A stretch of DNA of 64,000 bases, taken from positions 16,489-80,488 of the forward strand of contig JANLYQ010000072.1 in assembly GCA_031365725.1 (NCBI GenBank), written 5' to 3'. This document shows, one piece after another, positions 5,874-52,715 of the stretch. The stretch is from Sporichthyaceae bacterium. GTDB lineage: Bacteria; Actinomycetota; Actinomycetes; JACCUZ01. The notes beneath the pieces were generated by a model that saw only the letters and a list, made by a program, of their open reading frames with translations, searched no databases and had not been told where the DNA came from. The position numbers were made by a program, and so were the translations under genes. Positions within the stretch are counted from its first letter, which is position 1. The number at the start of each line of letters is the position of its first letter.

Positions 5874-5878
5874 CGGGG

Positions 5879-12988: not shown

Positions 12989-12991
12989 GTC

Positions 12992-13648: not shown

Positions 13649-15181
13649 GTGATGGCCACGGCCACCGTGTCCCCAGGTGATGCGTCCCCGAGTGGCGCTG
13701 CTCGGCCGTCGCGACCGCGTACGTTCCTGCCGGGTTTGCCGACCTGGGTGATCGCGCTCGGGGTCGTCCTCCTGCACCTGGTGGTGACGTTCCTCGTGCG
13801 CCCGGCGCCGCGCTGGAACGACGGCATCTTCGTGCTCAACGACGCACGCAGCTTCCCGCACGTGCCGCTGGACCACCACGCGCTGCGGATCGGCACCATC
13901 CTGCCGACGAGGCTGTTCCTCGAGGTCTTCGGCTACGGGCAGGTCACCTACTACGCCTGGCCGTTCCTCACCGGGATCATGCTGGTGGTTGCCGTGCTCG
14001 CGCTGGGCGCTGTGCTGTTCGACCGGTGGGTCGGCGCCGTGGCCGCGGTGCTGCTGGTCTTCCACCCGGTGCTCGTCGACACCGTGATCACCAACGGCAC
14101 CGAGCGCATGACGAGCTGGCAGCTGCTGCCCGACATCCCGTCGACCGCCTTTGTCACCACCGGTTTTGCGCTCATGATCGCTGCGACCCGGCGCGAGGGT
14201 CGGGCGGCCACGCGATGGTTCCTGCTGGCCGGGTTCTGCTTCGGCTGGGCCTATCTGGTACGTGAGCTGTCGGTGTTCTTCTACCCCCTGGTCGTCGCGG
14301 TGCTCGTCGTGTGGCGGGCGCGGATGGCGCGCTGGGTGCAGGTCGCGCTGCCGATGCTCGGCGCGCTGGTGCTCGAGATGGTGCTGGCGCAGTGGGCGCA
14401 CGGCGACCCGTTGGCGCGGCTCAAGGTCGACGGCGAGCACGGCAGCGCCCCGCTGTCACCGATCACCCGGCTCGACGCCCTGCTGCGGTTCCCGCGCATC
14501 GTCGAGGTCTATCCGCAGACGCTGCTGGTGCTGACCTCGTTCGTGCTCATGGTGCTCGGCGCACTCGTGGTGCGACGGCGCGAGCACGTGCTGCTGCTCG
14601 GTTGGTTCCTGGTGATCTGGGTGCCGCTGACGCTGGTGTCGGGACTGCTCGACCCGGGCTTCATCCGCATCAACGCCTCACTCATGCGCTACTGGGTGCC
14701 GGTGCTCCCCGCGCTGGTGATCGGCTCGACCGCCTTCGTGGCGTGGCTGCTGGTGCACCTGCGGCGTCGGCTGTCCGGGCTCGGGGTGGGCGTCACCGTG
14801 GCCGTAGCGGTCCTGGCTGTCCTGGTGGCCGCCGTACCGCTGCGGGGGCTGATCCTCGACAACCCGCGCGACCACTCCTGGAACGCTGTGCGCGCCTGGC
14901 TGCACACCCATGACGCGATGGTGTCGACGATCATCACCGACGACCGCGACGCCCTGGTGCTCGGCATCTTCAGCCGCGAGCCGGTCGGGGGCGGGCTGGT
15001 CGTGCACGCGAAGGTCCGCAAGGTCGGGCACGGGCTCACGGCGGCCCCGGTCGGCACCGGGGCGCCCGGCACCTACCTGGTCTGGACACCCGGCCTGTCC
15101 CGGCACGCGCCGAGGTCCTTCGACGGGTGGCGGCTGCTGCTGCGCGAGCCCCAGCTCCGCATCTACGGCCCGGCCCGGTAG
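13649..15181 (+). CDS. GT-C-fold membrane protein, putative polyprenol-phosphate-sugar dependent glycosyltransferase (PMT/ArnT/GT39-like); function unproven
   Basis: ~11 predicted TM helices in the N-terminal 380 aa followed by a soluble C-terminal domain, the layout of GT-C enzymes. GTG 13649 overlaps the scoB stop region; ATG at 13652 is an alternative. Confidence 0.45.
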   Translation: MMATATVSPGDASPSGAARPSRPRTFLPGLPTWVIALGVVLLHLVVTFLVRPAPRWNDGIFVLNDARSFPHVPLDHHALRIGTILPTRLFLEVFGYGQVTYYAWPFLTGIMLVVAVLALGAVLFDRWVGAVAAVLLVFHPVLVDTVITNGTERMTSWQLLPDIPSTAFVTTGFALMIAATRREGRAATRWFLLAGFCFGWAYLVRELSVFFYPLVVAVLVVWRARMARWVQVALPMLGALVLEMVLAQWAHGDPLARLKVDGEHGSAPLSPITRLDALLRFPRIVEVYPQTLLVLTSFVLMVLGALVVRRREHVLLLGWFLVIWVPLTLVSGLLDPGFIRINASLMRYWVPVLPALVIGSTAFVAWLLVHLRRRLSGLGVGVTVAVAVLAVLVAAVPLRGLILDNPRDHSWNAVRAWLHTHDAMVSTIITDDRDALVLGIFSREPVGGGLVVHAKVRKVGHGLTAAPVGTGAPGTYLVWTPGLSRHAPRSFDGWRLLLREPQLRIYGPAR

Positions 15182-15202
15182 GCGCTGCCTCAGGTATCCG
15201 AG

Positions 15203-16357
15203 CTACCGGTCGACGAGGTCGAAGGTGGCTTCCCACCGGGCCAGGATCTCGTCCGCGGCAAAACGCCGGACACTCTGCCGCGCCGCAGCACCGAAGCGCC
15301 GACGAAGGTCCGCGTCACCCATCAGCCGGGACAGTCCGGCCGCCAGGGCCTCGACGTTGCGCGGTGGCACGACCAGCCCGTCCACCCCGTCGGTCACGAT
15401 CTCTCGCACACCAGGTGCGCAGTCGAAAGCGACGCAGGCGAGACCGCACGCCATGCCTTCGGCCAACGCCATCGGCAGGCCCTCGTGGATGGAGGACAGC
15501 GCGAACACCGAGGACGCCAGCAGCTCGGTCTCGATGTCGCCGGCGAGACCGGGCAGCAGCACCCTGGCTTCGAGCCCGGCGGCCGTCACCTGCTTGCCCA
15601 GGTCGGCCTTCAGCGGACCGCTCCCCCAGATCGTCAGCGTCCAGTCCGGATGCTGGCCGGCGACGAGCCCGAAGGCAGTGATCAGCCGGTCGTAGCCCTT
15701 CTCCGGCGCGAGCCGGCCGGCCGCGACGACCACCTTCGTGGTCTGGTCGCTGGCCGCCTCGGGATAGTAGGACAGCGAGTTGGGCATCACGCCGACGTTG
15801 TTGAAGCCCTCGAGCTCGAACCGCGCCGCATCGTGCTCGGTCAGCAGCAGCATGAGGTCGACATCGCGGTAGAACCTCTGCACCCGCTCCCACCGGCTCG
15901 ACGCCAGCGTCGCATCGAAGGACTCGTGGCTCATGCCGATCACGTGCAGGTGACCGGTGCGGGCCGGGGCCACCCAGTTCATCGAGTGGATCTGCATCAC
16001 CACCACGACACCCTCGTCGACCACGTCGAACAACGACGAGAGCCTCTCTACCGCCGTACGGCGGGCAGCGTGGTGTCGCTCGCGGGCGGCACGGACGCGG
16101 GGGTCGACCCCGGCCAGCAGACCGCCGGTCTTCGGGGGCGGCGGGGGCTCGGCCTCCTCGTTGAGCACCAGCCACCGGTAGGGCCGGGTGCCGTAGTCGT
16201 GCGCCTCGACCGCGTGCTGGATGCCGACCACGGTGACCCGGTGGCCGCGCTCGTGCAGCATCGTGGCGAGGTTGTGCGTGACGCGCTGCACCCCGCCGAG
16301 CTCGTCGATGTTGTTGGCAACCAGGAAGATGTCCCGCGGGGTCTCGGTGGGCGTCAC
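15203..16357 (-). CDS. glycosyltransferase family 4
   Basis: GT-B C-terminal half VVVAAGRLAPEKGYDRLITAF...LTIWGSGPL...SSIHEGLPMALAEGMACGLACVAFD (EX7E-type). GTG start at 16355-16357 overlaps the TGA of the upstream gene (16354-16356) as GTGA. The track ORF extends to 16480 with an Arg-rich, non-GT N-terminus. Confidence 0.8.
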   Translation of the reverse strand: MTPTETPRDIFLVANNIDELGGVQRVTHNLATMLHERGHRVTVVGIQHAVEAHDYGTRPYRWLVLNEEAEPPPPPKTGGLLAGVDPRVRAARERHHAARRTAVERLSSLFDVVDEGVVVVMQIHSMNWVAPARTGHLHVIGMSHESFDATLASSRWERVQRFYRDVDLMLLLTEHDAARFELEGFNNVGVMPNSLSYYPEAASDQTTKVVVAAGRLAPEKGYDRLITAFGLVAGQHPDWTLTIWGSGPLKADLGKQVTAAGLEARVLLPGLAGDIETELLASSVFALSSIHEGLPMALAEGMACGLACVAFDCAPGVREIVTDGVDGLVVPPRNVEALAAGLSRLMGDADLRRRFGAAARQSVRRFAADEILARWEATFDLVDR

Positions 16358-19218
16358 GACCGCTGCCCCGGCCGGGCCGCGAGACCGCGCGCGAAGAACC
16401 GATCCACGACGTCCTGGGCGGCCGCGCCCGTCTCGAACTCGCAGAACCGCTGCTGGAAGTCGGCGTAGCGATCGGCCCACTGCTCCGGCCGCTCCTGCAC
16501 CTCGCGCAGCGCCTCGATCAATCCTGCGGTGTCTTCGACCACTGGGCCCGGCGCGATGTCGGGCAGGTCGAGATAGGTGCCACGCTCGTCGCGGACGTAG
16601 TCCTCGTAGTCGTAGGTGTAGAACACCATCGGCTTGCCCGTGTTGGCGAAGTCGAACATCACCGAGGAATAGTCGGTCACCAGGACGTCCGCGACGAGCA
16701 TCAGCTCGGTCACGTCGTGCACCAGCGACACGTCGGCGACGAACGGGTCGTAGCGCGCCGACAGCTTGTAGCGGTCGAGGTAGTGGGTGCGCAGCATGAG
16801 GAACGAGTCATCGCCGAGCGAACGGCGCATGAGCTCGAGGTCCATCGGCAGGTCGTACTCCTTCTGCAGCCGACGGGCCCGGTCCCGGAAGGTCGGGCAG
16901 TACAGCACCAGCCGCCGGTCGGTCGGTAGCTGTAGCTGCTGCTTCTTGGCCAGCACCCAAGCCGGGTCTGCGCCGCGCACCAGGAAATCGTTGCGGGGCA
17001 AGCCTCTACGCACCAGCTCGCCCTCGTAGCCGTAAGACGTCACGAAGGTCTCGACGAAGTACTCGCTCGGCACCAGCAACGCGCTCCAGCGCCGCATCAT
17101 CGTCTTGTGCTGCTTTCGCACCGATGCTGAGGCCCGCTCCAGCGCCGGCGAGTCGAAGCCCATCCGCTTGAGCGGAGTGCCGTGCCAGGTCTGGACGTAG
17201 GTCGTCTCACGACGCCGGTTGAACATCCGCGGCAGTCCCTGGTTGTCCACCCAGAACTCCGCTCGCGCCAGGTCGTAGAGGTAGCGCCAGCTCTCGCGCT
17301 TGACCAGACGGGCACCCTCGGGAAAGCCGCGCTTGCTGCGGGCGTAGGACCACACCGGCTGAAGGCCCAGCCGGTCCAACCCGGTAGCCACCGCCGCCTC
17401 GTAGATGTAGCGCGGGCTGTCGCTGTACTGCAGGCCCATGTGCGACTCGAACACGGCGAGACCGGGCGTGACCGGCAGCTTGCGGAACAGCCGGTAGGCC
17501 TGCTTCTTCAAGGTCGGGTTGTTGCCGATCGCGCGCTTGGACCGCCAGCGGACCGAGTTGGTGACCCGCCCCGCCAGCAACGCCGCCTGCGCGTCAGCCT
17601 CGGTGCCTCCGACGTCGGGCAGCTGACGGAACGCCAGGTTGAGCCGGACCGTGGCGAAAGCCTCGACCTGACCGCGGGCCGCACCACCGAGGCGGGCGCG
17701 CACGGTGATGGGTCGTCCCGTGATGGCGGTCGGGTCCACCGACACCGGGCTGATGTTGACCTCCTCGCCGTTGCGGATGCGCATTGCGACATCCCACACC
17801 GGGTGCAGCTGGTCGAGGCGGCCGAGCGCCGCGTCCAGGTCGATCACGGTGCGGTAGTGCAGCCGCTTGCCCTCGATCCACCAGTCGCGCACGGGCTTGG
17901 CCCGGTGCGGACCGGTCCGGGCCCGGTTGTTCAGCTCGATGGAGAGCTCGAGGTCGTCACCCGGCGTGATCCGGCCGAGCGGGATGACCACCTGGCCCTG
18001 GATGCGCACGGTGGACCCGACGAGCTCGCCGGCGGTGATGAGGTTGTGCAGGACCAGCCGGCTGAACGGCAGCCGGTGGAACCCCATCTCGGTAACGTCC
18101 ATGACGGCACGGTCGTGCTCGGTGTCGAGGTACTTGTCCGACCAGAACACCCGTCCGTCCCGCTCGACGAGGTCGGTCGAGAGCGCGAAGCCGTGCCGCA
18201 GGTAGTCGACTGTCTTGAGGGTCTCTTCCACGTCGCGACGTCTGATCATGGCGACACAGATCCGCTCGACCGGATACACGAGGTCGAGGGTCTTCTCGCT
18301 GATGGTCTCGAGGTAGTCCGCCGCAAGGTCCATGAACTTGCGCTGGTAGTCCTCGTCGCGCTCGGGCAGGTCCGACAGATAGAGCTTGAGGTCGTGCCGG
18401 ATGAACTTGAAGTCCTTGTGCACCTTCAGATCGCCCGACCCGTGCTCACGCAGGAAGTCATCCATCATCCGGTGCACGGCGATGCGGTCGCGGAAGTTCT
18501 CGAACTCGTGCCGACGCTGGGTGATCGACGCCGCGTCTGCGTCCTCCACCACCCGCCAGTAGTAGATGACGTTGGGCACGACCGCGATCACCTTGGCCTG
18601 GCAGTAGACCTTGGTGGAGAACAGCGAGTCCTCGTAGTGAATGCCTTCGGGGAAGGTGATGCCGTTCTCGCGCAGGAAGTCACGCCGGTAGATCTTGTTG
18701 GTCGACAGCGGGTCGAAGAAGAGCAACGGGTTCTCGCGGATGCCGTTGTAGGTCACCCGCCGGGTGAACAGCTCCTTGACCCAGCCGGTCTCCCGGTCCC
18801 GGGTGAGGTTGACCCGCACCACCTGACCAGCCACCACGTCCGCGCCGGTGCGCTCGGCCGCGAGCAGCATGTTCTTGCAGGCGTGCCGCTCGAACACGTC
18901 GTCGCTGTCGAGGAACATCACGTAGGGCGCCCGCGCGTGCTCGAGCCCGACGTTACGTGGCCGGCTGCAGCCACCACTGTTGCTCGGCAGCTGTACGACG
19001 GTCAGCCGGGCATCCTCGCGTGCCATGGCCTCGGCCACCGCGACCGAGTCGTCGGAGGAAGCGTCGTCGACCACCACCACCTCGAGGTTGCGCAGCGACT
19101 GGTCCAGCACCGAACGGATGGCCGAGGGCAGGTTGGCGCTGTCGTTGTAGCCGATCAGCACCACCGTGACGTCGGGGGTCGCTCGGGCGGGGATGGGCCG
19201 GGTGGGCATGTGCACCAC
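16354..19218 (-). CDS. bifunctional glycosyltransferase family 2 / CDP-glycerol glycerophosphotransferase (TagF/TagB-like) protein
   Basis: N-terminal GT2: VTVVLIGYNDSANL, VVVVDDASSDDS, YVMFLDSDDVF. C-terminal Glyphos_transf domain: VFESHMGLQYSDSPRYIYE, YVQTWHGTPLKRMG, VLVTDYSSVMFDF. Confidence 0.85.
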   Translation of the reverse strand: MVHMPTRPIPARATPDVTVVLIGYNDSANLPSAIRSVLDQSLRNLEVVVVDDASSDDSVAVAEAMAREDARLTVVQLPSNSGGCSRPRNVGLEHARAPYVMFLDSDDVFERHACKNMLLAAERTGADVVAGQVVRVNLTRDRETGWVKELFTRRVTYNGIRENPLLFFDPLSTNKIYRRDFLRENGITFPEGIHYEDSLFSTKVYCQAKVIAVVPNVIYYWRVVEDADAASITQRRHEFENFRDRIAVHRMMDDFLREHGSGDLKVHKDFKFIRHDLKLYLSDLPERDEDYQRKFMDLAADYLETISEKTLDLVYPVERICVAMIRRRDVEETLKTVDYLRHGFALSTDLVERDGRVFWSDKYLDTEHDRAVMDVTEMGFHRLPFSRLVLHNLITAGELVGSTVRIQGQVVIPLGRITPGDDLELSIELNNRARTGPHRAKPVRDWWIEGKRLHYRTVIDLDAALGRLDQLHPVWDVAMRIRNGEEVNISPVSVDPTAITGRPITVRARLGGAARGQVEAFATVRLNLAFRQLPDVGGTEADAQAALLAGRVTNSVRWRSKRAIGNNPTLKKQAYRLFRKLPVTPGLAVFESHMGLQYSDSPRYIYEAAVATGLDRLGLQPVWSYARSKRGFPEGARLVKRESWRYLYDLARAEFWVDNQGLPRMFNRRRETTYVQTWHGTPLKRMGFDSPALERASASVRKQHKTMMRRWSALLVPSEYFVETFVTSYGYEGELVRRGLPRNDFLVRGADPAWVLAKKQQLQLPTDRRLVLYCPTFRDRARRLQKEYDLPMDLELMRRSLGDDSFLMLRTHYLDRYKLSARYDPFVADVSLVHDVTELMLVADVLVTDYSSVMFDFANTGKPMVFYTYDYEDYVRDERGTYLDLPDIAPGPVVEDTAGLIEALREVQERPEQWADRYADFQQRFCEFETGAAAQDVVDRFFARGLAARPGQRS

Positions 19219-19270
19219 CTCTCATGTGTCGTCGGGTGAGTGGCATCGGGTGAGGTGAGTCGGGTGTCCC

Positions 19271-20140
19271 TCACACCACCGGCGGTCGTCCCGCCAGCGT
19301 GAGCCGCCAGACCGTCGACCAGCGCATGACCCGCCGCGGTCCGGCGCCCGGCCCGAAGCCCTCGCGGAAGCCGGCGAACCACTCCCGCAGCAGCCGCGGC
19401 GAGCGCAGCCGGGCGACGGACACCAGCGTCCAGGTCGTCAGGTACATGACGATCAGCGGCGCAGGGAGGTTCCGGCGGGCCACCCAGACGCGGTTGCGCG
19501 CGTTGTTGCGGAGGTAGGCCGCGTGCCGGGCCGGTGAGGTGGCCGGATGGTTCATCACCACGTCCGGGGCGTACCAGGTGGTGAAGTCCTCGTCCCAGAT
19601 CCGCCAGACGAGCTCGATGCCCTCGTGGCCGTAGAAGAAGTGCCCCGGCCAGCCACCGACCCGGTGGAACAGCTCGGCCCGCACGACGAACGTGCCCTCC
19701 CAGATCCAGCCCACCACTCCTGCCCGCAGCGGGTCACGGCCACCGGGTCGCGGAACCCACCGCGAGGGCGAGGGCGCCCCCCCGGGGTCGACCGGACGCG
19801 GCTGCACGGCACCCACCTCGGGCTGCCGCTCCAGCACTGCACAGAGCCGCGAGAGCACGTCGGTGGTCGGGAGGTAGGCATCATCGTCGTAGAAGAAGAG
19901 CACGTCGCCGCGCGCCTCGGCGGCCCCGACGTTGCGCCCCTCGGGGATGCCGACGTTCTCGGGCAGGTGAACGCTGCGCACGCCCGCCGGCAGGCCCACC
20001 GGCTCCCACCCGTTGCCCACGACCACCACGTCGAGGTCGACGTCCTCCTGCGCCAACAACGAGGCCAGTGCCCGCGGGAACTCCCGCGGCCGGGTGCCCA
20101 TGCTCAGCACCACGGCGCCGACCCGGGGACGAGTGCTCAT
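19271..20140 (-). CDS. glycosyltransferase family 2
   Basis: VGAVVLSMGTRPREF, VVVVGNGWEP, LFFYDDDAYL (DXD). ATG start overlaps the upstream TGA (ATGA at 20137-20140). Confidence 0.75.
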   Translation of the reverse strand: MSTRPRVGAVVLSMGTRPREFPRALASLLAQEDVDLDVVVVGNGWEPVGLPAGVRSVHLPENVGIPEGRNVGAAEARGDVLFFYDDDAYLPTTDVLSRLCAVLERQPEVGAVQPRPVDPGGAPSPSRWVPRPGGRDPLRAGVVGWIWEGTFVVRAELFHRVGGWPGHFFYGHEGIELVWRIWDEDFTTWYAPDVVMNHPATSPARHAAYLRNNARNRVWVARRNLPAPLIVMYLTTWTLVSVARLRSPRLLREWFAGFREGFGPGAGPRRVMRWSTVWRLTLAGRPPVV

Positions 20141-20946
20141 CGCAGCCGGCTCGAGGTGAGGATCGCCGCGAGGTGACCGGTGACGGTGACGACAGCGACC
20201 GGCAGGAGGACCAGCACGACCACCCGCGTGACCTCCACACCGCCACCGGTGAGCACGTCACCGATCGCCGCGACGAACGCCAGCAACGTCATCTCGATCG
20301 AGTGGAACACCCGGTGGAACGGCAGGTACCGTGCGAGCGAGCGCAGCCGACGCAGCAGCGACACCTGGGGTGTTGCCTCGCCGGCGTTGTCCTCGAGCTT
20401 CATCAGGCCGCTGGCGGTCCGCGCCAGGTGCACCCCGTCGTTGAGCGACTTGTTGACCAGCACCAGCACCGCGAGCACCGCGCCCAGCGTCGTCCAGCCG
20501 CCGATGGACCGGACACCCCCGTCAGCTCGTACACCGAGGGCCAGCGGGATCGCGCTCTCGGCGACCGTGTGGCCGAGCTTGTCGAGGAAGAACCCGGCCG
20601 GGGAGAAGGTCTGCCGCCACCGCGCCACCTCACCGTCGCAGCAGTCCCACAGCATCTGCAGCTGGCCGAGCAGCATCGCGAGGACGGCACCGGCAAGGCC
20701 CGGCACCAGCAGCGCGGCGCCGGCCGCCGCGCCCGTGAGGATCATCAGCACGGTCACCGCATTGGCGGTGAGCGCGGTGCCGATCAGCACGCGGGTGAGG
20801 TACGGCGACAGCCGGCGCTGGTAGAGGTCGGCCGTCCAGTGCTCGGAGTTGCGTCGGCCCCGGATCGCGGGGGGCTGGGTCACCGCGCGCAGCTCGGCGA
20901 TGGTGGGCCGCTCAGCCACCGGGTGCCCCGACGCTGACGGGCGCAC
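20137..20946 (-). CDS. CDP-alcohol phosphatidyltransferase family protein; last Asp of the signature replaced by His
   Basis: D-x2-DG-x2-AR-x8-G-x3-D-x3-H: DCCDGEVARWRQTFSPAGFFLDKLGH; 5-6 TM helices. Overlaps the upstream gene by ~35 nt if the ATG at 20946 is used. Confidence 0.7.
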   Translation of the reverse strand: MRPSASGHPVAERPTIAELRAVTQPPAIRGRRNSEHWTADLYQRRLSPYLTRVLIGTALTANAVTVLMILTGAAAGAALLVPGLAGAVLAMLLGQLQMLWDCCDGEVARWRQTFSPAGFFLDKLGHTVAESAIPLALGVRADGGVRSIGGWTTLGAVLAVLVLVNKSLNDGVHLARTASGLMKLEDNAGEATPQVSLLRRLRSLARYLPFHRVFHSIEMTLLAFVAAIGDVLTGGGVEVTRVVVLVLLPVAVVTVTGHLAAILTSSRLR

Positions 20947-22786
20947 GATCGGGCCGTCGGCGCACCTCGCGCAGCACTCTCGTCGGCTCGACCACGAGGA
21001 AGAGCATGCCGAGCCCGGCGACCAGCACCCACAGGCCCCCCCGGGCGAGCGCGGGCGCCGGGCCGGGCAGCAGAGTCGCGGCGAGCGCCAGCAGACCGAG
21101 CACGGCCAGCCGTCCGGCGAAGCCCAGGCCGGCAGCCACGGTCGCCGGTGGCGGTGGCGTCAGCCGGTGCAGGACCCGGTAGAGCTCGTCGTAGTGGTGC
21201 GAGGCGACCACCAGCAGCAGCAGGAAGGTGGCCGCAGGGACCCTGTCACGCACCCCGAGCGCGGCCGCAAGCGCGAGCAGGCCGCCGTACTCGGTGAGAC
21301 GGAGCAAGGGCGGACGCAGCCACAACCACCGCGAGGTGCCCTCCGGCGGCCCGGCGAGACGCCCCGCGACCCGGACGGGCACCAAGGCCCCGGCATCGAC
21401 CTGGGCCAGCACGATGGCTTTCTCGCGCGGGGAGACGGGGGGCGCCGGCCACGAGCGGGCACGCAGCACCCGGCCCACCGACGTGTAGCCCAGCGACACC
21501 AACGCCAGACCCAGCAGCACAGCGAGGGCCAGCAGCGGGAGCCCGAGAGCGGCCAGCAGCGAGAGCACCAGCCACCGCTCGCCGATACCCAGGTGCAGCA
21601 GCTTCTTGACCGTGGTGACACCGCGGCGATCGCCGGCGCGGCGCGACTGCTCGACGGCGCGCGCGGCACGCGCGTCACCGCACACCGGTGCGGCAGCCAC
21701 GTCGGAGCGGGTGTCCAGCGGCAGCGCGACGACGACGGTCTCGCGCAGCTCCTTGACCGCGGTGAAGGTGTAGTCGACCGTGTGCCGCGCCGTCTGCACC
21801 GTGAGCAGGGCAGCGGCCAGCCACCAGGCGCCGCGGCCCGCCAAGTGCCCCGAGAGGGGCGTGGCGCCCCAGCCGACCGACACACCCCAGGCGAGGCCGC
21901 CGTAGCAGGCGAATTCCTTCAGCCGGTCGGTCGACGCATCCAGCCACGCCCCGGTGGCGGAGAATGCCCGGCGATAGCGCGCGACCTCACCGTCGACGCA
22001 GTCGAGCACGAACGACGTCTGCATCAGCAGCGCGCCGACGAGCAGCGCCGGACGGGTGCCGAGCGCGAAGGACCCGGCCGCGGCCAGGCCGAGGACGACC
22101 GACCCGGCGGTCACCTGGTTGGGACTGAGCTCGAGACGAAGCGCCAGCGGCGTCAGCCGCCGCGACAGCGGCCGGTGCAGCAGGGTCGCCGTCACGCCGT
22201 CGTCGGCCTTCGTGGCTCTGGCGAGCCGGGCAGCATGCACCTCGTGCGGGGTGAGCGCGTCCAGCCGCAGCTGCAGACCCCGTGCCGGGTCGTCAGCGCG
22301 GGACCACTCCCACGGATCGAGCAGCACGGTGGCCACGGCCACCTCGCGGCGCACGAGAGCGAGCAGCAGAAAGGCGAGCGGGTCTCCGGTCCAGCCGCGC
22401 ACCCGGGCCAGCTCGGCGACGCTGCGTGCCACGGCTGCGGCCGGACCGCGATCGACGGCCGCGACGCGAAGTGCGCCGGCAAAGGCAGTGTCCACGTCGT
22501 ACGCCGAGTGGACCGCCGTCGCCACCCCGACCACCCGACCGGCCCGCACCCGGAGGTCAGGCGGGTAGTCGGCTGCGCGGCTGACCAGAGCCATCGTCGC
22601 GGACCGAGGGTCTTCGGCGAGGTCGGCCAACGCCGCCGGGTGCACCTGCAGGTTGCTCGACACCAGCAGCACCGGGCCGCCGGCCGCCGGGTCCGGCGAA
22701 GCAGGCAGGTCCAGTGCAGCGGCCAGGTCCGACAGCCCGGTCGCGAGGTCCGGGGGGGCTGGGTCCACCGCGACCGGCGCGCTCAC
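20912..22786 (-). CDS. IPCT/DIPPS-like fusion: degenerate N-terminal nucleotidyltransferase-like domain + complete CDP-alcohol phosphotransferase domain + extra C-terminal TM region
   Basis: CDP-OH signature complete (DCVDGEVARYRRAFSATGAWLDASTD). N-terminal ~230 aa retain IPCT-like blocks (DVDTAFAGALRVAAVD; WEWSRADDPARGLQLRLDAL) but lack the G-x-G-x-R-L NTP-binding loop. GTG start at 22784-22786 overlaps the TGA of the ABC ATPase gene (GTGA). The track ORF start at 22975 would overlap that gene by 190 nt. Confidence 0.65.
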   Translation of the reverse strand: MSAPVAVDPAPPDLATGLSDLAAALDLPASPDPAAGGPVLLVSSNLQVHPAALADLAEDPRSATMALVSRAADYPPDLRVRAGRVVGVATAVHSAYDVDTAFAGALRVAAVDRGPAAAVARSVAELARVRGWTGDPLAFLLLALVRREVAVATVLLDPWEWSRADDPARGLQLRLDALTPHEVHAARLARATKADDGVTATLLHRPLSRRLTPLALRLELSPNQVTAGSVVLGLAAAGSFALGTRPALLVGALLMQTSFVLDCVDGEVARYRRAFSATGAWLDASTDRLKEFACYGGLAWGVSVGWGATPLSGHLAGRGAWWLAAALLTVQTARHTVDYTFTAVKELRETVVVALPLDTRSDVAAAPVCGDARAARAVEQSRRAGDRRGVTTVKKLLHLGIGERWLVLSLLAALGLPLLALAVLLGLALVSLGYTSVGRVLRARSWPAPPVSPREKAIVLAQVDAGALVPVRVAGRLAGPPEGTSRWLWLRPPLLRLTEYGGLLALAAALGVRDRVPAATFLLLLVVASHHYDELYRVLHRLTPPPPATVAAGLGFAGRLAVLGLLALAATLLPGPAPALARGGLWVLVAGLGMLFLVVEPTRVLREVRRRPDRAPVSVGAPGG

Positions 22787-23571
22787 TTCCGGGTCCGCCG
22801 GTCCGCGTCCTCCTGGTACTGCCCGAGCGCGTCGTCCAAGGAGCCGTCGGTCACCAGCGCGCCGGCGTTGAGGTAGAGCCCCCGGGTACAGAACCGGCGC
22901 AGGTCGCCCTCGCTGTGCGAGACGAGGAACAGCGTCTTGCCCCCGGAGAGCATCTCGTTCATGCGGCCGTAGCACTTCTCCCGGAAGGCACGGTCGCCGA
23001 CGGCCAGCACCTCGTCGACGAGCACGATCGGCTCGTCGAGAGTGGTGATGACCGAGAAGCCGAGGCGCACCTTCATGCCGGAGGAGAAGTGCCGGAACGG
23101 TGTGTCGAGGAAGTCGCCCACCTCGGCGAAGTCGACGATCTCGTCGAACCGCTCGTTGATCGCGCGGCGCGAGAGGCCGTGCAGACCGGCCGTCAGCCAG
23201 ATGTTGTCGCGGGCGGTGAGGTCGCCCTCGAAGCCACCGGTCACCTCGATCAGCGGGGCGACTCCCCCGGTGACGGCGATGCCGCCGGCATCCGGGATCA
23301 ACACGCCGGCGATCAGCTTGAGCAGCGTGCTCTTGCCCTGGCCGTTGGCCCCGACGAGACCGACCGCCTCGCCCTGACCGACGGTGAAGGACACGTCTTT
23401 CAAGGCCCAGAAGCCACCGGTGCGTGGCTTGCGCTTGCCCCGCGCCGCCGCAGGGGTGATGACACCAGGCGGTTCTTCGCTGGCGAACATGTCGCGCAGA
23501 CGACGGTGCCGGCGACGGTTGCGCTTGAAGTAGATGCCGAGGTTCTGGGCCTCGATGACGGGTGCGCCCAC
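22783..23571 (-). CDS. ABC transporter ATP-binding protein, TagH/polysaccharide-export type
   Basis: IEAQNLGIYFK (first beta strand), Walker A GLVGANGQGKST, signature FSSGMKVRLGFS, Walker B IVLVDEVLAVGD. GTG start at 23569-23571 is 2 nt after the permease stop. The track's long N-terminal extension (to 24138) overlaps the permease gene and is Arg-rich. Confidence 0.85.
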   Translation of the reverse strand: MGAPVIEAQNLGIYFKRNRRRHRRLRDMFASEEPPGVITPAAARGKRKPRTGGFWALKDVSFTVGQGEAVGLVGANGQGKSTLLKLIAGVLIPDAGGIAVTGGVAPLIEVTGGFEGDLTARDNIWLTAGLHGLSRRAINERFDEIVDFAEVGDFLDTPFRHFSSGMKVRLGFSVITTLDEPIVLVDEVLAVGDRAFREKCYGRMNEMLSGGKTLFLVSHSEGDLRRFCTRGLYLNAGALVTDGSLDDALGQYQEDADRRTRK

Positions 23572-23573
23572 CC

Positions 23574-24407
23574 TCAGATCTCCTTCAGGACGGCGCCCTC
23601 GAGCCGGCGGAACACCACCGCACCGGCGACGAACGTGACGACCGCGATGACGGCCGACACCGCAACCGCGCGCCAACCTGCCCACTGGTCGGGGAAGAAC
23701 GCCGTGCGGTAGAGGTCGAAGATGCCGGCGAACGGGTTGAGGATGTAGATGCGCGCGACCGCATGGCCCAGCCGGTGCTGCACATCCTGAGTGCCGTAGA
23801 TCACCGGCGAGAGGTAGAACAGCAGCCGCATGACGGCGTTGATCAGCCGCTCGACGTCGCCGTACAGGATGGCCAGCGGGGCGAGCAGAAGGCCGATGCC
23901 GACCAGGAGCAGGCTCTGGATGAGGAAGGCCAGCGGCGCGAACACGACGTACCAGCTCAGGTGCGCGTGCGTCACGACGGCGAAGAACACGATCACCGGC
24001 ACCGACAGCAGGAACTCGATCGCCTTGGACCCCACGGTGCGCAGCACCCAGATCTCGCGCGGCAGGTTGGTCGAGCGCACCAGCTTGGCGTCCTTGGACA
24101 GCGCGCGCATCGAGGCACGCATCGATCCGTTGGCCCACTGCCAGGGCAGCATCGCGCAGAGCAGGAAGACGATGTACGGCGTGTCACCGACCTGTCGCGT
24201 CATCAGCTTGGTGAAGACGAACCAGTAGACACCGGCGAGCATCAACGGGTCGAGGATCGACCAGAGATAGCCCAGCACCGAGTCGGAGAACTTGACCTTC
24301 AGGTCACGGGTGACCAGCAGGGCGAGGATTCGTCGCGCCCCCCACAGCACCGAGAACCGAGAGGGAGCCACCAGATGGGTCGGCGCCGAGAGGACCTGAC
24401 CAGCCAC
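23574..24407 (-). CDS. ABC-2 type transporter permease, TagG/polymer-export type
   Basis: 6 TM helices, ABC-2 motif region RDLKVKFSDSVLGYLWSILDPL; GTG start with GGGAG-like SD; paired with a TagH-like ATPase. Confidence 0.85.
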   Translation of the reverse strand: MAGQVLSAPTHLVAPSRFSVLWGARRILALLVTRDLKVKFSDSVLGYLWSILDPLMLAGVYWFVFTKLMTRQVGDTPYIVFLLCAMLPWQWANGSMRASMRALSKDAKLVRSTNLPREIWVLRTVGSKAIEFLLSVPVIVFFAVVTHAHLSWYVVFAPLAFLIQSLLLVGIGLLLAPLAILYGDVERLINAVMRLLFYLSPVIYGTQDVQHRLGHAVARIYILNPFAGIFDLYRTAFFPDQWAGWRAVAVSAVIAVVTFVAGAVVFRRLEGAVLKEI

Positions 24408-24501
24408 GTCTCTCCCACCCGGTGATCGCTTGCGGACTGCGAAACGCTATCACCGGGACCGCGGCAACGCCGCGGACCGGGACAGCGGTCGCGGGGTCGG
24501 T

Positions 24502-25557
24502 TCAGGCGTGCAGAGCGACGAACTCCTCGACCTTGCGGCGCACCGCCGGTGCGTCGAGGTCGAGGTGCTCGAGGATCGTGAAGCGGTCCGGCCGGGTGCT
24601 GGGGGCCAGCAACACCGCCTCGGCGAACTGGTCGTCCGACAGGCCGAGATCGGCCGGCAACCGCGGCAGCTCGTGGCGTCGCAGACAGGCGTCGACGAGC
24701 ATCCTCGACTCGTCGTCACCCCGCAGGAAGAAGGCGAACAGCGCCCCGATGCCGGCGAGCTCGCCGTGGTTGCCGGCCCCGGGGAAGAGCTGGTCGATCG
24801 CGTGCAGGATCTCGTGGTCGCTGCCGCTGCAGGGCCGGCTCGACCCCGCGGCCGCCATGGCCATGCCGGACAGGACCAGCGCCTCGGCCAACGCGGTGAG
24901 GAACCGGTCGGAGTCGATGCCGTCAGTGCGGTGCACCAGCGCCTCGGCCGCGGTACGGGCGAAGGTGACGGCCAGCCCGTCGACCGGCTCGCCGCGCTCG
25001 GCGCCCGCGAGCTCCCAGTCGGCGATGGCTGAGAGGTTGGAGACGGCGTCGCCGATGCCCGAGCGCACCATGCGCGGCGGCGAGGACCGCACGTAGTCGA
25101 GGTCGACGACCACCGCCATCGGCAGCACGACACCGAAGGACCCCTTGCCGCCCTCGTGCAGCAGCGAGCTGACCGGCGAGGCGATGCCGTCGTGAGCCAG
25201 GTTGGTGGCCACCGCCACCATCGGCAGGGCGAGGCGGGTCGCGGCGTACTTGGCGACGTCGAGGGTGCGACCGCCACCGATCCCGACCACGGCGTCGTAC
25301 GTCGTGCCGCGCAGCTGGGTCTGCAGCTCGCCGGCCGCCTCGAGACTGCCGCCGCGCACGGTGAAGATGTCGGCGTTGCCGAGGCTGGGCCGGATCTCCT
25401 CGACCAGGCGCTCACCCTGTCCGGGTCCGACGGCGACCGCGACATGCCCGCCGGCCGAGATGCGCTTGTCAGCCAGCAGGTCACCCAGACCGGAGACTGC
25501 CCCGGCCCGGATGTCGATGACCAGCGGGCTGAGCAGCATCCGGGCTAGTAGTGGCAC
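24502..25557 (-). CDS. iron-containing alcohol dehydrogenase / DHQS-like superfamily protein, putative sn-glycerol-1-phosphate dehydrogenase (EgsA/AraM family)
   Basis: 351 aa; nucleotide-binding GIGGGRTLDVAKYAA (GGG-x3-D-x2-K) and metal-ligand region typical of G1PDH-type enzymes. GTG at 25557 overlaps the upstream NTP-transferase by 13 nt; ATG at 25537-25539 (MLLSPLVIDIRAG) is an alternative start. Assignment within the superfamily is from recalled motifs only. Confidence 0.55.
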   Translation of the reverse strand: MPLLARMLLSPLVIDIRAGAVSGLGDLLADKRISAGGHVAVAVGPGQGERLVEEIRPSLGNADIFTVRGGSLEAAGELQTQLRGTTYDAVVGIGGGRTLDVAKYAATRLALPMVAVATNLAHDGIASPVSSLLHEGGKGSFGVVLPMAVVVDLDYVRSSPPRMVRSGIGDAVSNLSAIADWELAGAERGEPVDGLAVTFARTAAEALVHRTDGIDSDRFLTALAEALVLSGMAMAAAGSSRPCSGSDHEILHAIDQLFPGAGNHGELAGIGALFAFFLRGDDESRMLVDACLRRHELPRLPADLGLSDDQFAEAVLLAPSTRPDRFTILEHLDLDAPAVRRKVEEFVALHA

Positions 25558-26294
25558 GCGATCTCCCGGGCCCGCGTGAGGTCGTCGTGGTTGTCGACCT
25601 CGACCCAGGGCAGATCCCCGATCGGTGCGGCGCCGATCTCGCCGCCGGTGTCGACCAGGGTCTGGTAGCCGTCCTCGTAGTAGAGGTCGGGGTCCCGGCG
25701 CCAGGTGGCTTCGAGCGCGGTGGTCAACGCATCAGCGGCGTGCGCCTCGATGAGGGTCGCGCCGATGTACTCCCCGCTCGCCTCGGCCGGGTCCATCAGC
25801 TTGGTGATGCGGCGCATCCGGCCGTGCTCGTCGAGGACGACCTTCATCTCCTCCTCGGCCAGCGACTTTCGGTCGTCGAGGGCGAGCAGGATGCCGGGCG
25901 AGCCCGGCTGCTCACGGGCGGCCAGCAGGACACGCTCGACGTCGACGGGGTGCACGGTGTCGCCGTTGACGAGCAGCGCGCCCTGAGCGAGGTGGTCACG
26001 GGCCAGCCAGAGGCTGTAGCAGTTGTTCCACTCCTCGGCCTTGTCGTTGTGCACGAGGGTGAGACGCACGCCGTAGCGCTCCTCGAGCTGGGCCCGCCGC
26101 TGATCGACCGCCTCGGCCCTGTAGCCCACGACGACCGTGACGTCGGTCAGCTCGACGGCCGCGAGGTTGCGCAGCGCGATGTCGAGGATCGTCGTCTCAC
26201 CGTCGACCGGCACCAGGGCTTTGGGCAGCGTGTCGGTGTAGGGCCGCAGTCGTCGCCCGGCCCCTGCTGCCAGCACCAGGCCGATCATCGGCAC
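25545..26294 (-). CDS. NTP-transferase domain protein, IPCT-like cytidylyltransferase (CTP:polyol-phosphate cytidylyltransferase family)
   Basis: GLVLAAGAGRRLRPYT..PKALVPV (G-x-G-x-R-L loop), EEWNNCYSLWLARDHL and WVEVDNHDDLTRAREI resemble the IPCT half of archaeal/Thermotoga IPCT-DIPPS. First gene of the minus-strand operon. Confidence 0.7.
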   Translation of the reverse strand: MPMIGLVLAAGAGRRLRPYTDTLPKALVPVDGETTILDIALRNLAAVELTDVTVVVGYRAEAVDQRRAQLEERYGVRLTLVHNDKAEEWNNCYSLWLARDHLAQGALLVNGDTVHPVDVERVLLAAREQPGSPGILLALDDRKSLAEEEMKVVLDEHGRMRRITKLMDPAEASGEYIGATLIEAHAADALTTALEATWRRDPDLYYEDGYQTLVDTGGEIGAAPIGDLPWVEVDNHDDLTRAREIACHY

Positions 26295-26470
26295 GCCTTG
26301 CTGCTCACGTCGCTGTTGCTCCTCGCACGCACCGGTCAGGACCCCCGGACGCTATCGCCCTCGCCGCGCTCCACGCCGCGGGCACCGCCGGACCGATGTA
26401 TCAGCCGGCGATGCGGCGCCTCTGGTAGCGGACGGGCGCGCAGCCCGGCGACCGCCGAAGGGGGACGACG

Positions 26471-28126
26471 ATGACGACCAGGGTGAGCACGTCCGGACAA
26501 CCGACAGGGCCGAGCCGGCGCAGCCTGCTGCGCGCCGGGGCTGGGGGCCTGGGCGCGGTCGCCCTGACGGGGATCGGTGCCTCAGCGGCCGCACCCGCCA
26601 CGGCCGCTGCCTCGAGCGGCTGCCCGATGGGCGGGGCCGGTCACGGCGGCCCGTCAACGACCTTCGGGCGGATGTTCCCGGAGCTGCCGCCCTTCGCCAC
26701 GGACAGCCCGGCGCTACGCGAGGCTCTTCTCGCCATCGGGGCCTCCGGCGGCATGCTCGACGCCGGCGATGACCTGTTCGGTCCCAACGGCGGGCCGGTG
26801 AAGCTCATCACCGACCCTGACCTGAGCCTGGTCAACCGCAACAACCCCCACGACACCGCGGGCATGACCTTCATCGGCCAGTTCATCGACCACGACCTGA
26901 CTTTCGACGCCACGTCCCGCCTCGGCGTGGCGACCGATCCGACCACCTCACCGAACGGGCGCACGCCACGGTTCGACCTTGACTCCGTCTACGGCGCCGG
27001 CCCCGTCATGTCGCCCGAGCTGTACGCCGACAACGACCCGATCAAGCTCCGGGTGGAGTCGGGTGGTGCGTTCGAGGACCTGCCGCGACGACCCGACGGG
27101 TCGGCGGTGATCGGCGACATCCGCAACGACAGCAACCTTCTGGTGTCGGGACTGCACGCGGCATTCCTGGAGTTCCACAACCACGCGGTCGACGAGGTGC
27201 GCGTCGCCGGCGCGGACCCGATGGACACCTTCGACACCGCTCGGCGGGAGACGAGGTGGCACTACCAGTGGCTGGTGGTGAACCGCGTGCTGTCGAACTT
27301 CGTCGGGACGCCGATGGTCGATGCGGTGCTGGCGCGGGCTGCGCGACGCGGCTCCGCCAGGAGCCGGGGCGCGGCGATCCCGGTCGAGTTCTCGGGTGCC
27401 GCCTACCGGTTCGGCCACAGCATGGTGCGGCCGTCGTACCGGGCGAACCTGGCCGGCGACAACGGATCGCCGTTCTTCGGCCTCATCTTCGACTCGCGCG
27501 TGACCGTGCCGGACGGGCAGCACCCGGCCACCGATCCGGGCGACCTCCGCGGCGGTTTCCGGGCGGCGCGTCGGTTCGTCGGCTGGCAGACGTTCTTCGA
27601 CTTCGGTGGCACGTTCAGCGCGGCAACCCGTCCCAACAAGACCATCGACACGGTGCTCTCGACACCCCTGTTCACCTTGCCCACGAGTGCCATCGCCCAC
27701 GTGCCGGGTTCGCCGGGCCCGCTCGCCCTGCCGCAGCGGACTCTGCTGCGGCACCTCACCTGGTCACTGCCCTCGGGTCAGGCAGTGGCCCGTCAGCTCG
27801 ATGCACCCGTGCTGCACCGGGCCGATCTCGCGGACCTCGCGGCGTTCGGTCCGGTGGCCGGCCGCGGCGTCGGGCTCGACCGGTCGACCCCGCTGTGGTT
27901 CTACGTGCTGCGCGAGGCCGACCTCGCGACCGGTGGCCAGTTCCTCGGTCCGGTGGGCGGCCGCATCGTGGCCGAGACGATGCTGAGCCTGCTGCTCGCC
28001 GACCCGGCAAGCTATCTCTGCGCGCAGCCGGGCTGGCAGCCGCACCTGGGCGGTACTGGCTCGACGTATGAGATCGCCGACTTCCTGCGCTGGGCCGGGG
28101 TCGACCCGACTAGCCGCGGCCAGTGA
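26471..28126 (+). CDS. Tat-secreted animal-heme-peroxidase family protein (peroxidasin/cyclooxygenase-like bacterial peroxidase)
   Basis: Twin-arginine signal SRRSLLRAGAGGLGAVAL; An_peroxidase motif FIGQFIDHDLTF and distal/proximal His regions. GAAGGGGGA SD upstream of ATG 26471. Confidence 0.8.
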   Translation: MTTRVSTSGQPTGPSRRSLLRAGAGGLGAVALTGIGASAAAPATAAASSGCPMGGAGHGGPSTTFGRMFPELPPFATDSPALREALLAIGASGGMLDAGDDLFGPNGGPVKLITDPDLSLVNRNNPHDTAGMTFIGQFIDHDLTFDATSRLGVATDPTTSPNGRTPRFDLDSVYGAGPVMSPELYADNDPIKLRVESGGAFEDLPRRPDGSAVIGDIRNDSNLLVSGLHAAFLEFHNHAVDEVRVAGADPMDTFDTARRETRWHYQWLVVNRVLSNFVGTPMVDAVLARAARRGSARSRGAAIPVEFSGAAYRFGHSMVRPSYRANLAGDNGSPFFGLIFDSRVTVPDGQHPATDPGDLRGGFRAARRFVGWQTFFDFGGTFSAATRPNKTIDTVLSTPLFTLPTSAIAHVPGSPGPLALPQRTLLRHLTWSLPSGQAVARQLDAPVLHRADLADLAAFGPVAGRGVGLDRSTPLWFYVLREADLATGGQFLGPVGGRIVAETMLSLLLADPASYLCAQPGWQPHLGGTGSTYEIADFLRWAGVDPTSRGQ

Positions 28127-29147: not shown

Positions 29148-29188
29148 GGCGAGGTCACGGTATCGACGCGGCTCGGCGCTCGCCCGGC

Positions 29189-36567: not shown

Positions 36568-36667
36568 GGGAGGGAGCCTTCCTTACGGAGCCGTAAGACA
36601 TGACGGTGTAACGGCGGGCGGTGACCGGAGGACAACACGACATCGACGAGACAGTCCTTGGAGCAGC

Positions 36668-48293: not shown

Positions 48294-48375
48294 GGACTGC
48301 TCGCTGGCGGTGAGCGTCGCATCTAGGGTCGTCGATGCGGTCAAGTGGCAGGACCTGGGGCACGATAAGTCACCT

Positions 48376-49356: not shown

Positions 49357-49361
49357 CCCGG

Positions 49362-50267: not shown

Positions 50268-50290
50268 GGCCGCCGCCCTTCCCGGAGCCG

Positions 50291-52491: not shown

Positions 52492-52528
52492 CGGCGGCAA
52501 CCCTAGCCAGCCGTGACCTCTTACCCAC

Positions 52529-52579: not shown

Positions 52580-52715
52580 CCGCACAGTCAGACTGCCTGT
52601 GGATGACCGACAGCCTGGATCGAGCCCACCGACCACGCTGTACGGCGTGCAGGAAGCATTCTCCTCCCGACGGCTACCGGCAGCGCTGCGTCCGCTTGCC
52701 ACCCGCCAGGACGAC

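Follow-up and report, generated by a model that had tools for sequence, protein, structure and literature searches.

Comparative analysis of a 64,000-nucleotide (nt) stretch of the genome of a Sporichthyaceae bacterium (contig JANLYQ010000072.1, positions 16,489–80,488; hereafter the window, to whose positions all coordinates refer) pointed to a teichoic-acid-type pathway for a glycerol-phosphate glycopolymer with its own CDP-glycerol source, distinct from TagD. We give this reading a probability of roughly 55%. The pathway would be encoded by nine co-directional minus-strand genes that occupy 15203–26294, led by a cytidylyltransferase related to LicC and inositol-1-phosphate cytidylyltransferase (IPCT) and a dehydrogenase of the sn-glycerol-1-phosphate dehydrogenase (G1PDH) family. 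The cluster is real, widely conserved, and apparently uncharacterized; its novelty would lie in how the donor is supplied and in the membrane module that primes the chain, both of which differ from those of known teichoic-acid-type pathways.

A nine-gene operon

Gene families were assigned with Pfam and NCBIfam, and start codons were re-derived from ribosome-binding sites, stop/start overlaps, and orthologue lengths. In gene order, with protein lengths in amino acids (aa), the nine genes are:

25545–26294 (−): cytidylyltransferase, LicC/IPCT-like, 249 aa; Pfam NTP_transferase (4.5e-13) and NTP_transf_3
24502–25557 (−): G1PDH-family dehydrogenase, 351 aa; Pfam Fe-ADH_2 (1.4e-29)
23574–24407 (−): ABC-2 permease, TagG/Wzm-like, 277 aa; Pfam ABC2_membrane (5.2e-12)
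22783–23571 (−): ABC ATPase, TagH/Wzt-like, 262 aa; by NCBIfam
20912–22786 (−): large membrane CDP-alcohol phosphotransferase with DUF5941, 624 aa
20137–20919 (−): small CDP-alcohol phosphotransferase, 260 aa; Pfam CDP-OH_P_transf (6.2e-6)
19271–20140 (−): small GT2 glycosyltransferase, 289 aa; Pfam Glycos_transf_2 (5.6e-10)
16354–19209 (−): GT2 and Glyphos_transf fusion, 951 aa; Pfam Glyphos_transf (3.4e-93, 313 bits) and Glycos_transf_2 (5.2e-31)
15203–16357 (−): GT4 glycosyltransferase, 384 aa; Pfam Glycos_transf_1 (4.6e-39)

A first-pass annotation, made from the letters of the sequence, had predicted families for these nine genes, and each was recovered by Pfam and NCBIfam. No curated NCBIfam equivalog name applied, and every NCBIfam match to the nine proteins fell under its curated cutoff. 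The same annotation described the genes as mostly overlapping by 4 nt. Successive junctions are a 13-nt overlap, gaps of 94 and 2 nt, overlaps of 4, 8, and 4 nt, a 61-nt gap, and a 4-nt overlap; five of the eight therefore do overlap, but only three by 4 nt, and the other three are gaps. The permease starts with a GTG at 24407 preceded by a GGGAGAG ribosome-binding site, and the ATPase with a GTG at 23571, 2 nt past the permease stop codon and with AAGGAG before it. The start of the small GT2 overlaps the upstream stop codon as ATGA and that of the GT4 as GTGA, the length of the latter protein equaling that of its orthologue in locus L001.

The identical gene order occurs on a 3.5-Mb contig of a related genome, and across related loci (see below) a cytidylyltransferase gene lies directly upstream of the dehydrogenase, ending at its start, in 78 of 81; the operon arrangement is therefore not due to chance. 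An Rfam scan over 14000–30000 found no RNA family, and a promoter and terminator scan found nothing above shuffled sequence, with no terminator-like site beyond chance inside the nine-gene block. The window has a GC content of ∼71%, and its nearest relatives come from genomes of uncultured Actinomycetes and Sporichthyaceae.

The dehydrogenase is a G1PDH-family protein

Profile, motifs, and fold all place the dehydrogenase in the G1PDH family. Its top NCBIfam family was archaeal NAD(P)-dependent G1PDH (PRK00843, 235 bits), 176 bits ahead of glycerol dehydrogenase (59 bits), with dehydroquinate synthase (DHQS) at 19 bits. A phmmer search of all Protein Data Bank (PDB) sequences returned the Methanocaldococcus jannaschii G1PDH 4RGQ first (1.7e-46), followed at ranks 2–4 by an uncharacterized Clostridium acetobutylicum protein (3CE9), a Pyrobaculum G1PDH, and a 414-residue G1PDH that a fold search identified as Bacillus subtilis AraM. 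Glycerol dehydrogenases scored E-values of 1e-12 or weaker, and dehydroquinate and deoxy-scyllo-inosose synthases 1e-5 to 1e-4. The automatic name given by the Joint Genome Institute and UniProt is likewise G1PDH.

The NAD(P)H loop GGGxxxDxxK is present (G94 G95 G96 R T L D100 V A K103) and invariant in 12 relatives. In the 4RGQ alignment, D170 (GIGD170AVSN), H248 (SSRPCSGSDH248), and H264 (H264GE) fall on D148, H226, and H247 of the M. jannaschii enzyme, which we take to be its zinc ligands (numbering checked against the tagged chain), and all three are conserved in relatives. The surrounding motifs GDxVSN, SSRPxSGSxH, and HGE align between the two proteins as well. The arginine of SSRPxSGSxH, near-invariant in the family, is kept here and replaced by serine in 3CE9.

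An AlphaFold2 model of the dehydrogenase (pLDDT 90.4) had DHAP-bound 4RGQ as its best match (TM 0.79–0.85, 31% identity; DHAP, dihydroxyacetone phosphate); against 4RGQ, 5FB3, and 9H4X together the TM-scores were 0.77–0.85, in the DHQS-like/Fe-ADH_2 fold. The 4RGQ match ranked above AraM (9H4X, 22% identity) and above all glycerol dehydrogenases, and with 31% identity the dehydrogenase stands nearer to archaeal G1PDH than AraM does with 22%. AraM has been validated as a bacterial G1PDH; its product goes into heptaprenylglyceryl phosphate (PMC4244643). Because this validated enzyme is the more distant of the two, the most economical prediction, and still a prediction, is that the dehydrogenase reduces DHAP to sn-glycerol-1-phosphate (G1P). 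Profile, loop, metal ligands, and fold agree with the G1PDH-like identity first proposed from the GGG-x3-D-x2-K loop, and in the comparison with the DHQS and deoxy-scyllo-inosose synthase families G1PDH came first, the others being far weaker.

The partner cytidylyltransferase resembles LicC and IPCT

The nearest solved structures of the cytidylyltransferase are LicC (1JYK, 62 bits), the Thermotoga maritima IPCT (4JD0, 39 bits), and the Archaeoglobus fulgidus IPCT (2XME, 23 bits), and its N-terminus carries an LAAGAGRRL loop. Pneumococcal LicC is a CTP:phosphocholine enzyme; the Thermotoga and Archaeoglobus relatives act on inositol-1-phosphate. By sequence, the protein falls in the LicC/IPCT group, which activates alcohol phosphates and not sugar-1-phosphates, and is not TagD-like, in keeping with its initial description as IPCT-like. 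The 13-nt overlap leaves it translationally coupled to the dehydrogenase. We propose that it turns CTP and glycerol phosphate into CDP-glycerol.

A tblastn search at E ≤ 10 found no TagD-like sequence in the window, a weak negative, as the B. subtilis TagD query was an unverified sequence. No IspD/TarI-like, GDPD, PfkB, or second TagF-like gene was found in the window by tblastn with versions from related loci as queries. An inositol-phosphate polymer, which the first-pass annotation had offered as an alternative product, found no support: among ∼50 scanned window open reading frames (ORFs) there was no inositol-1-phosphate synthase domain. We also rejected a phosphonate-tailoring reading, in which an iron-dependent alcohol dehydrogenase is paired with a PntC-type cytidylyltransferase; we saw neither a phosphoenolpyruvate mutase nor a decarboxylase, and the dehydrogenase belongs with G1PDH.

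Two membrane CDP-alcohol phosphotransferases

The large transferase, identical over its full length to a 624-aa NCBI protein (100% identity and coverage), consists of a degenerate nucleotidyltransferase-fold domain, a CDP-OH_P_transf core, and DUF5941. The catalytic signature DxxDGxxARx8GxxxDxxxD is complete, with D262, D265, G266, A269, R270, G279, D283, and D287 invariant across 36 homologues. A Foldseek search with its structure model (pLDDT 90.4, pTM 0.90) placed the A. fulgidus IPCT-DIPPS enzyme (4MND) and AF2299 (4O6M) on top, and the N-terminal 190 residues alone matched IPCTs. This N-terminal domain had no Pfam match even at E ≤ 1. The GxGxR nucleotide loop is missing from it, here as in Streptosporangium; the domain therefore probably serves in docking or binding and not in catalysis, as we take the N-terminal domain of AF2299 to do. 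The idea that it is a paralogue of the stand-alone cytidylyltransferase was set aside after BLASTP and Pfam came back empty; the relationship is visible by fold search only.

The membrane part (CDP-OH_P_transf and DUF5941) matched cholinephosphotransferase 1 (CHPT1) best, more closely than the six-helix DIPPS, at 12%–14% identity, and superposed on the ten helices of CHPT1. The earlier label of an IPCT/DIPPS-like fusion is right at the level of fold, but the N-terminus, IPCT-like in fold, is missing GxGxR, and the membrane part is more cholinephosphotransferase-like than DIPPS-like. CHPT1 joins a soluble CDP-alcohol to a lipid acceptor, diacylglycerol. By analogy, we propose that the large transferase takes the glycerol phosphate of soluble CDP-glycerol and passes it to a lipid acceptor.

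DUF5941 (20912–21680) is a helical membrane domain with a set of invariant polar residues (E403, R404, W405, R439, R442, D464, H530-H531-Y532-D533, Y536, and R559). Such invariance suggests that it carries a functional site and is not a passive anchor, and the superposition on CHPT1 hints at the nature of the family. An internal duplication of the CDP-alcohol transferase core was considered as its origin and discarded (hhalign probability 0.2%, not significant).

The signature motif of the small transferase reads DCCDGEVARWRQTFSPAGFFLDKLGH; the first three aspartates are kept and the fourth is a histidine. In ∼75 orthologues the fourth position is mostly histidine, is alanine in ∼18, and is never aspartate. 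Its match to AF2299 (4O6M) scored 33 bits. Annotation of this gene as a second CDP-alcohol phosphotransferase holds for the family, but the four-aspartate signature is incomplete in every orthologue. The protein may assist the large enzyme without catalysis of its own, or it may work by a modified mechanism or with a different base.

Exporter, glycosyltransferases, and a proposed TagF-like polymerase

The ABC transporter genes had been called TagG/TagH-like, and their best matches are indeed teichoic acid and galactan exporters: the NCBIfam galactan export permease Wzm for the permease (68 bits, under cutoff), and the teichoic acid export ATPase PRK13545 (191 bits) and galactan export Wzt (163 bits) for the ATPase, both also under cutoff. 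A sequence search found no solved relative of the small GT2.

The 951-aa fusion, described previously as joining a GT2 to a TagF-like glycerophosphotransferase, proved nearest the CDP-glycerol enzyme TagF. NCBIfam favored TarF (255 bits) over TarL (92 bits), and among PDB entries its C-terminal domain matched Staphylococcus epidermidis TagF (3L7I, 271 bits) far ahead of the capsule polymerase Cps3D (94 bits) and the ribitol-phosphate polymerase TarL (85 bits). For the N-terminal GT2 domain, the closest matches were the wall-teichoic-acid glycosyltransferases TarS (5TZE, 93 bits) and TarP. We propose that the fusion acts as a polymerase/glycosylase, and its domains would fit a glycosylated poly(glycerol phosphate) or a poly(glycosyl-glycerol phosphate) product. 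TagF-like polymerases use both CDP-glycerol enantiomers in vitro (PMC5974469), so an sn-1 donor should be no barrier to polymerization.

A smaller core is conserved across Actinomycetota

We scanned one genome per species with a profile for relatives of the dehydrogenase and found them in at least 591 species genomes. The best 80 were all from Actinomycetota; they included metagenome-assembled genomes of Actinomycetes and Frankiaceae, Solirubrobacteraceae, Gaiellaceae, Thermoleophilia, a Nocardioides metagenome-assembled genome, and many cultured Streptosporangiales (Nocardiopsis, Streptosporangium, Nonomuraea, Microbispora, Planomonospora, and others). The nine window proteins were then searched against all fetched loci. 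In addition to the upstream cytidylyltransferase already described, the G1PDH gene is followed immediately by the small CDP-alcohol transferase gene in 68 of 73 loci. Presence counts, taken over the 58 loci with full 10-kb flanks, were as follows:

Small CDP-alcohol transferase: 55/58
Small GT2: 53/58
GT2 like that at window positions 28110–29375: 48/58
IspD/TarI-like gene: 47/58
LCP gene (LytR-CpsA-Psr ligase) within 10 kb: 45/58
Large transferase: 34/58 at ≥50% query coverage, and more at lower coverage
Any TagF-like gene within 10 kb: 26/58
TagH: 20/58
TagG: 14/58
GlpQ-type GDPD gene beside the cassette: 10/58
PfkB kinase: 6/58
TarS-like domain of the fusion: 5/58
GT4: 5/58
TagF-like domain of the fusion: 3/58

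From these per-locus counts, the conserved unit is the donor supply pair together with the membrane CDP-alcohol transferases and the small GT2. The conserved core consists of the cytidylyltransferase, the G1PDH, the small CDP-alcohol transferase, and the GT2, and the large transferase usually accompanies them; lineage-specific accessories are the TagF fusion and the GT4. GC content dips to its lowest, 0.68–0.69, across 16000–20000 (the TagF fusion and its neighbors) against 0.70–0.735 around it, which agrees with the fusion and the GT4 being a variable and possibly exchanged part of the cluster. The operon had been described as built around the CDP-alcohol module and a putative G1PDH; a conserved core does exist, but it is smaller than the operon, with the TagF fusion and the GT4 outside it. 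The neighborhood comparison also showed the cluster to be very widespread, not rare.

Two features of individual loci stood out. In the Streptosporangium locus L025 the cassette is flanked by an IspD/TarI-like cytidylyltransferase (5514–6257, minus strand) and a PfkB kinase (12895–13770, plus strand), neither of which is in the window. In loci L002 (8802–10004) and L003 (8850–10004), a 384–400-aa protein with a sulfotransferase-like GVHKTGTT motif lies between the ABC ATPase and the large transferase.

A proposed pathway and its alternatives

The family membership of the proteins, their intact catalytic motifs, the coupling of the genes, and their conservation are established; from homology we infer substrates, stereochemistry, and the acceptor of the membrane transferase. 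In the pathway that we propose, the G1PDH homologue would reduce DHAP to G1P using NAD(P)H and a bound metal, and the LicC/IPCT-like enzyme would condense G1P with CTP to yield CDP-glycerol whose glycerol has sn-1-phosphate configuration, enantiomeric to the product of TagD. The 624-aa enzyme, probably with its small paralogue, would next move glycerol phosphate to a membrane lipid at the cytoplasmic face, as its fold suggests, and the small GT2 would add a sugar. In this organism, the TarS/TagF-like fusion and the GT4 would lengthen the chain, a poly(glycerol phosphate) or a poly(glycosyl-glycerol phosphate), and add sugars to it. By homology, the TagGH-type transporter would export the product, which the flanking LCP enzymes would ligate to peptidoglycan unless the lipid anchor stays.

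Several observations weigh against this scheme. At 235 bits the dehydrogenase is under the PRK00843 equivalog cutoff of 413, and the Prokaryotic Genome Annotation Pipeline names it only an "iron-containing alcohol dehydrogenase family protein." The small transferase may be inactive. No equivalents of TagO, TagA, or TagB were seen among the scanned window ORFs (they could lie elsewhere), and the priming chemistry is a guess. The TagD search covered the 64-kb window with an unverified query, and TagD or another CDP-glycerol source may lie elsewhere in the genome. A TagF-like gene occurs within 10 kb in only 26 of the 58 loci, so the core product may not be a TagF-made polymer everywhere. Finally, the distant Nanopelagicales-like loci L002 and L003 keep the membrane core and the exporter without a G1PDH gene, with a cytidylyltransferase only ∼30% identical and a separate TagF-like gene alongside; the membrane module is therefore not strictly tied to G1P.

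The dehydrogenase might instead act on another keto substrate, converting dihydroxyacetone to glycerol in the manner of Gtp1 or reducing some other ketose phosphate, and so lead to CDP-2-glycerol or another CDP-polyol. The Gtp enzymes comprise a reductase (Gtp1), a cytidylyltransferase (Gtp2), and a glycerol-2-phosphotransferase (Gtp3), and actinomycete teichoic acids use several polyols. Compared by role, the Gtp reductase/cytidylyltransferase pair resembles our dehydrogenase/cytidylyltransferase pair. The genes gtp1–gtp3 have been linked to glycerol-2-phosphate in pneumococcal capsules (PMC1391919). The score under the G1PDH cutoff, the PfkB kinase that follows the GT2 in Streptosporangium, and the structure of the uncharacterized C. 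acetobutylicum "glycerol dehydrogenase" 3CE9, which is as close as those of the archaeal enzymes, point the same way. However, the arginine of SSRPxSGSxH that 3CE9 has lost to serine is kept here, identity to bona fide G1PDH exceeds that of AraM, and the TagF-like domain is nearest the CDP-glycerol enzyme; moreover, the operon has no kinase or phosphotransferase gene for such a route, and PfkB is a neighbor in only six of the 58 loci. On this evidence we consider a different substrate unlikely.

Should the core instead make a membrane (glyco)phospholipid by Kennedy-type chemistry, CDP-glycerol and diacylglycerol would give a phosphatidylglycerol-type lipid that the GT2 glycosylates, while the TagF fusion, exporter, and LCP enzymes would serve another product or use the lipid as an anchor. 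CHPT1 is the best structural match of the membrane domain. In 32 of the 58 loci the core has no TagF-like gene nearby, and TagG and TagH are missing from most. In bacterial phosphatidylglycerol, the glycerol of the head group is of the sn-1-phosphate configuration. That configuration is consistent with what has been reported on the origin of lipoteichoic acid (LTA) (PMC7086022). Against these points, stop/start codon overlaps in the window tie the core into a single co-directional block with the exporter and polymerase, and 45 of 58 loci have an LCP gene within 10 kb. Actinobacteria, in addition, normally make phosphatidylglycerol via PgsA, and a second route would need a reason. We judge a phospholipid product quite improbable; it partly overlaps the priming step of the glycopolymer pathway. 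Far less probable still is that G1P feeds an archaeal-type ether lipid, as with AraM and PcrB in Bacillus, and that the glycopolymer linkage is incidental. Actinobacterial G1PDH orthologues have been read as possible archaeal-type lipid genes in phylogenomic work (PMC6431249), and the AraM product does enter heptaprenylglyceryl phosphate (PMC4244643), but the scanned operon and flank proteins contain no GGGPS/PcrB or UbiA-type prenyltransferase domain. In nearly all loci the dehydrogenase gene is coupled to a cytidylyltransferase gene and then a CDP-alcohol transferase gene, a partnership that argues for nucleotide activation of a free polyol phosphate.

Comparison with known systems

The glycopolymer pathway shares a TagF-like domain, a TarS-like domain, a TagGH-type ABC-2 exporter, and flanking LCP ligases with the wall teichoic acid pathways of Bacillus and Staphylococcus. 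It differs from them in that the donor would apparently come from a G1PDH homologue and a LicC/IPCT-type enzyme instead of TagD, in that two membrane CDP-alcohol phosphotransferases and a small GT2 stand in the operon in place of TagO, TagA, and TagB, none of which was seen among the scanned window ORFs, and in that the glycerol phosphate is predicted to be the sn-1 enantiomer, of opposite handedness. The dehydrogenase is like archaeal EgsA and B. subtilis AraM in fold, NAD(P)H loop, three metal ligands, and the SSRPxSGSxH motif; its genomic partners, however, are a cytidylyltransferase and CDP-alcohol transferases and not GGGPS/PcrB.

The large transferase shares its layout with the A. fulgidus IPCT-DIPPS enzyme (4MND) and AF2299 (4O6M): a nucleotidyltransferase-fold domain in the cytosol comes first, then a CDP-alcohol phosphotransferase core that bears the full signature. 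Unlike them, it lacks GxGxR, carries the extra DUF5941 helices, and has a separate cytidylyltransferase gene, and where IPCT-DIPPS is concerned, the partner gene here is a G1PDH homologue, with no inositol-phosphate synthase among the ∼50 scanned window ORFs. It departs from the eukaryotic enzymes CHPT1 and CEPT1 in being bacterial and only 12%–14% identical, and in having an added cytosolic domain, a small paralogous partner, and a place in a cell-wall polymer operon. The pneumococcal CDP-2-glycerol pathway is alike in that a reductase and a cytidylyltransferase supply an unusual CDP-glycerol to a surface polymer; compared by description, its glycerol-2-phosphotransferase Gtp3 is without a counterpart in the operon.

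Flanking genes and the wider window

The first-pass annotation had noted three LCP genes and a TIGR03089 gene flanking the operon, and Pfam and NCBIfam bore out all four. A further GT2 gene, divergent from the second LCP gene, was missing from its list.

9849–10607 (+): TIGR03089 family protein, beside LCP ligase 1 (222 bits against a cutoff of 85)
10674–12137 (+): LCP ligase 1; Pfam LytR_cpsA_psr (1.8e-48) and LytR_C
28110–29375 (−): GT2; Pfam Glycos_transf_2 (1e-20) and Glyco_tranf_2_3 (1e-16)
29189–30853 (+): LCP ligase 2; Pfam LytR_cpsA_psr (7.2e-48) and LytR_C
30952–32220 (+): LCP ligase 3; Pfam LytR_cpsA_psr (1.7e-40)

An ORF on the opposite strand at 28068–29222 (+), entertained as a conserved unknown, had no Pfam match and is probably an antisense shadow of this GT2; GC at third codon positions is 0.87 for the GT2 frame and 0.78 for the overlapping plus-strand ORF.

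A GT2 at 5879–6796 (−) resembles polyprenyl-phosphate glycosyltransferases (ArnC, PgfS, and AglJ matches), and a multi-pass PMT_2 membrane protein of the GT-C type lies near it at 13649–15181 (+); a pairing of this kind is typical of extracytoplasmic wall-polymer glycosylation. Between LCP ligase 1 and the PMT_2 gene are two CoA-transferase subunit genes (12182–13648, plus strand) with no obvious link to wall polymers. An 895-aa protein with Amidase_2 and FlgD_ig domains is encoded at 6842–9529 (−), near the TIGR03089 and LCP genes, and a related large amidase with Rv3811_N and SpoIID domains adjoins the cassette in loci L003 and L004. Divergent from the operon, 26471–28126 (+) encodes a 551-aa protein with an animal-haem-peroxidase domain and a twin-arginine-like N-terminus, SRRSLLRAGAGG.

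Farther away, the product of 35080–36582 (−) matched a PrmC-related methyltransferase (residues 15–268) and an ECF sigma factor (residues 288–497), and is either a fusion or two genes joined by the ORF call. The region at 46977–63421 encodes UDP-glucose dehydrogenase, PurK, acyl-CoA dehydrogenases, and an acyl-CoA carboxylase beta subunit, and presumably resembles a conserved actinobacterial neighborhood that in Mycobacterium tuberculosis (Rv3264c–Rv3281) contains Lcp1, WbbL, and ManB. If the resemblance is true, the polymer operon would sit in an ancestral wall-assembly locus.

Implications for actinobacterial envelope polymers

The first-pass annotation knew of no characterized pathway with this gene combination, and we found none in searchable full text, nor an NCBIfam equivalog. 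In a 2026 synteny survey of Streptomyces, a single syntenic region, left without a function, groups araM, tagG, and tagH with genes for a CDP-alcohol phosphatidyltransferase, a GT2, and a nucleotidyltransferase (PMC13118837). Full-text literature searches, to which many subscription papers are closed, returned no biochemical or genetic characterization of the cluster.

Classical wall teichoic acid is built from sn-glycerol-3-phosphate through TagD. In Bacillus, lipoteichoic and wall teichoic acids are enantiomeric, and the sn-glycerol-1-phosphate of LTA comes from phosphatidylglycerol outside the cell (PMC7086022). Actinobacteria are reported to make polyglycerolphosphate LTA without LtaS; a wall-teichoic-acid-like route has been suggested, with no genes assigned (PMC3196553, PMC3089915). 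The cassette is a concrete, testable candidate for that LtaS-independent actinobacterial route. That it is indeed the route of Actinomycetota to glycerol-phosphate polymers, with wall-linked and LTA-like polymers sharing one cytoplasmic sn-glycerol-1-phosphate pathway, is a tentative extension of the glycopolymer reading, which we think possible but doubtful.

Cultured carriers of the cassette (Nocardiopsis, Streptosporangium, Nonomuraea, and Microbispora) put experiments within reach. If the glycopolymer pathway is correct, the DUF5941 family would gain a bacterial cholinephosphotransferase-like architecture, and the actinobacterial G1PDH clade of "lipid divide" phylogenies (PMC6431249) would gain a physiological role. 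Under the more doubtful extension to the LtaS-independent route, the widespread actinobacterial G1PDH homologues would be reassigned from "archaeal-like lipid" relics to the synthesis of cell-envelope polymers.

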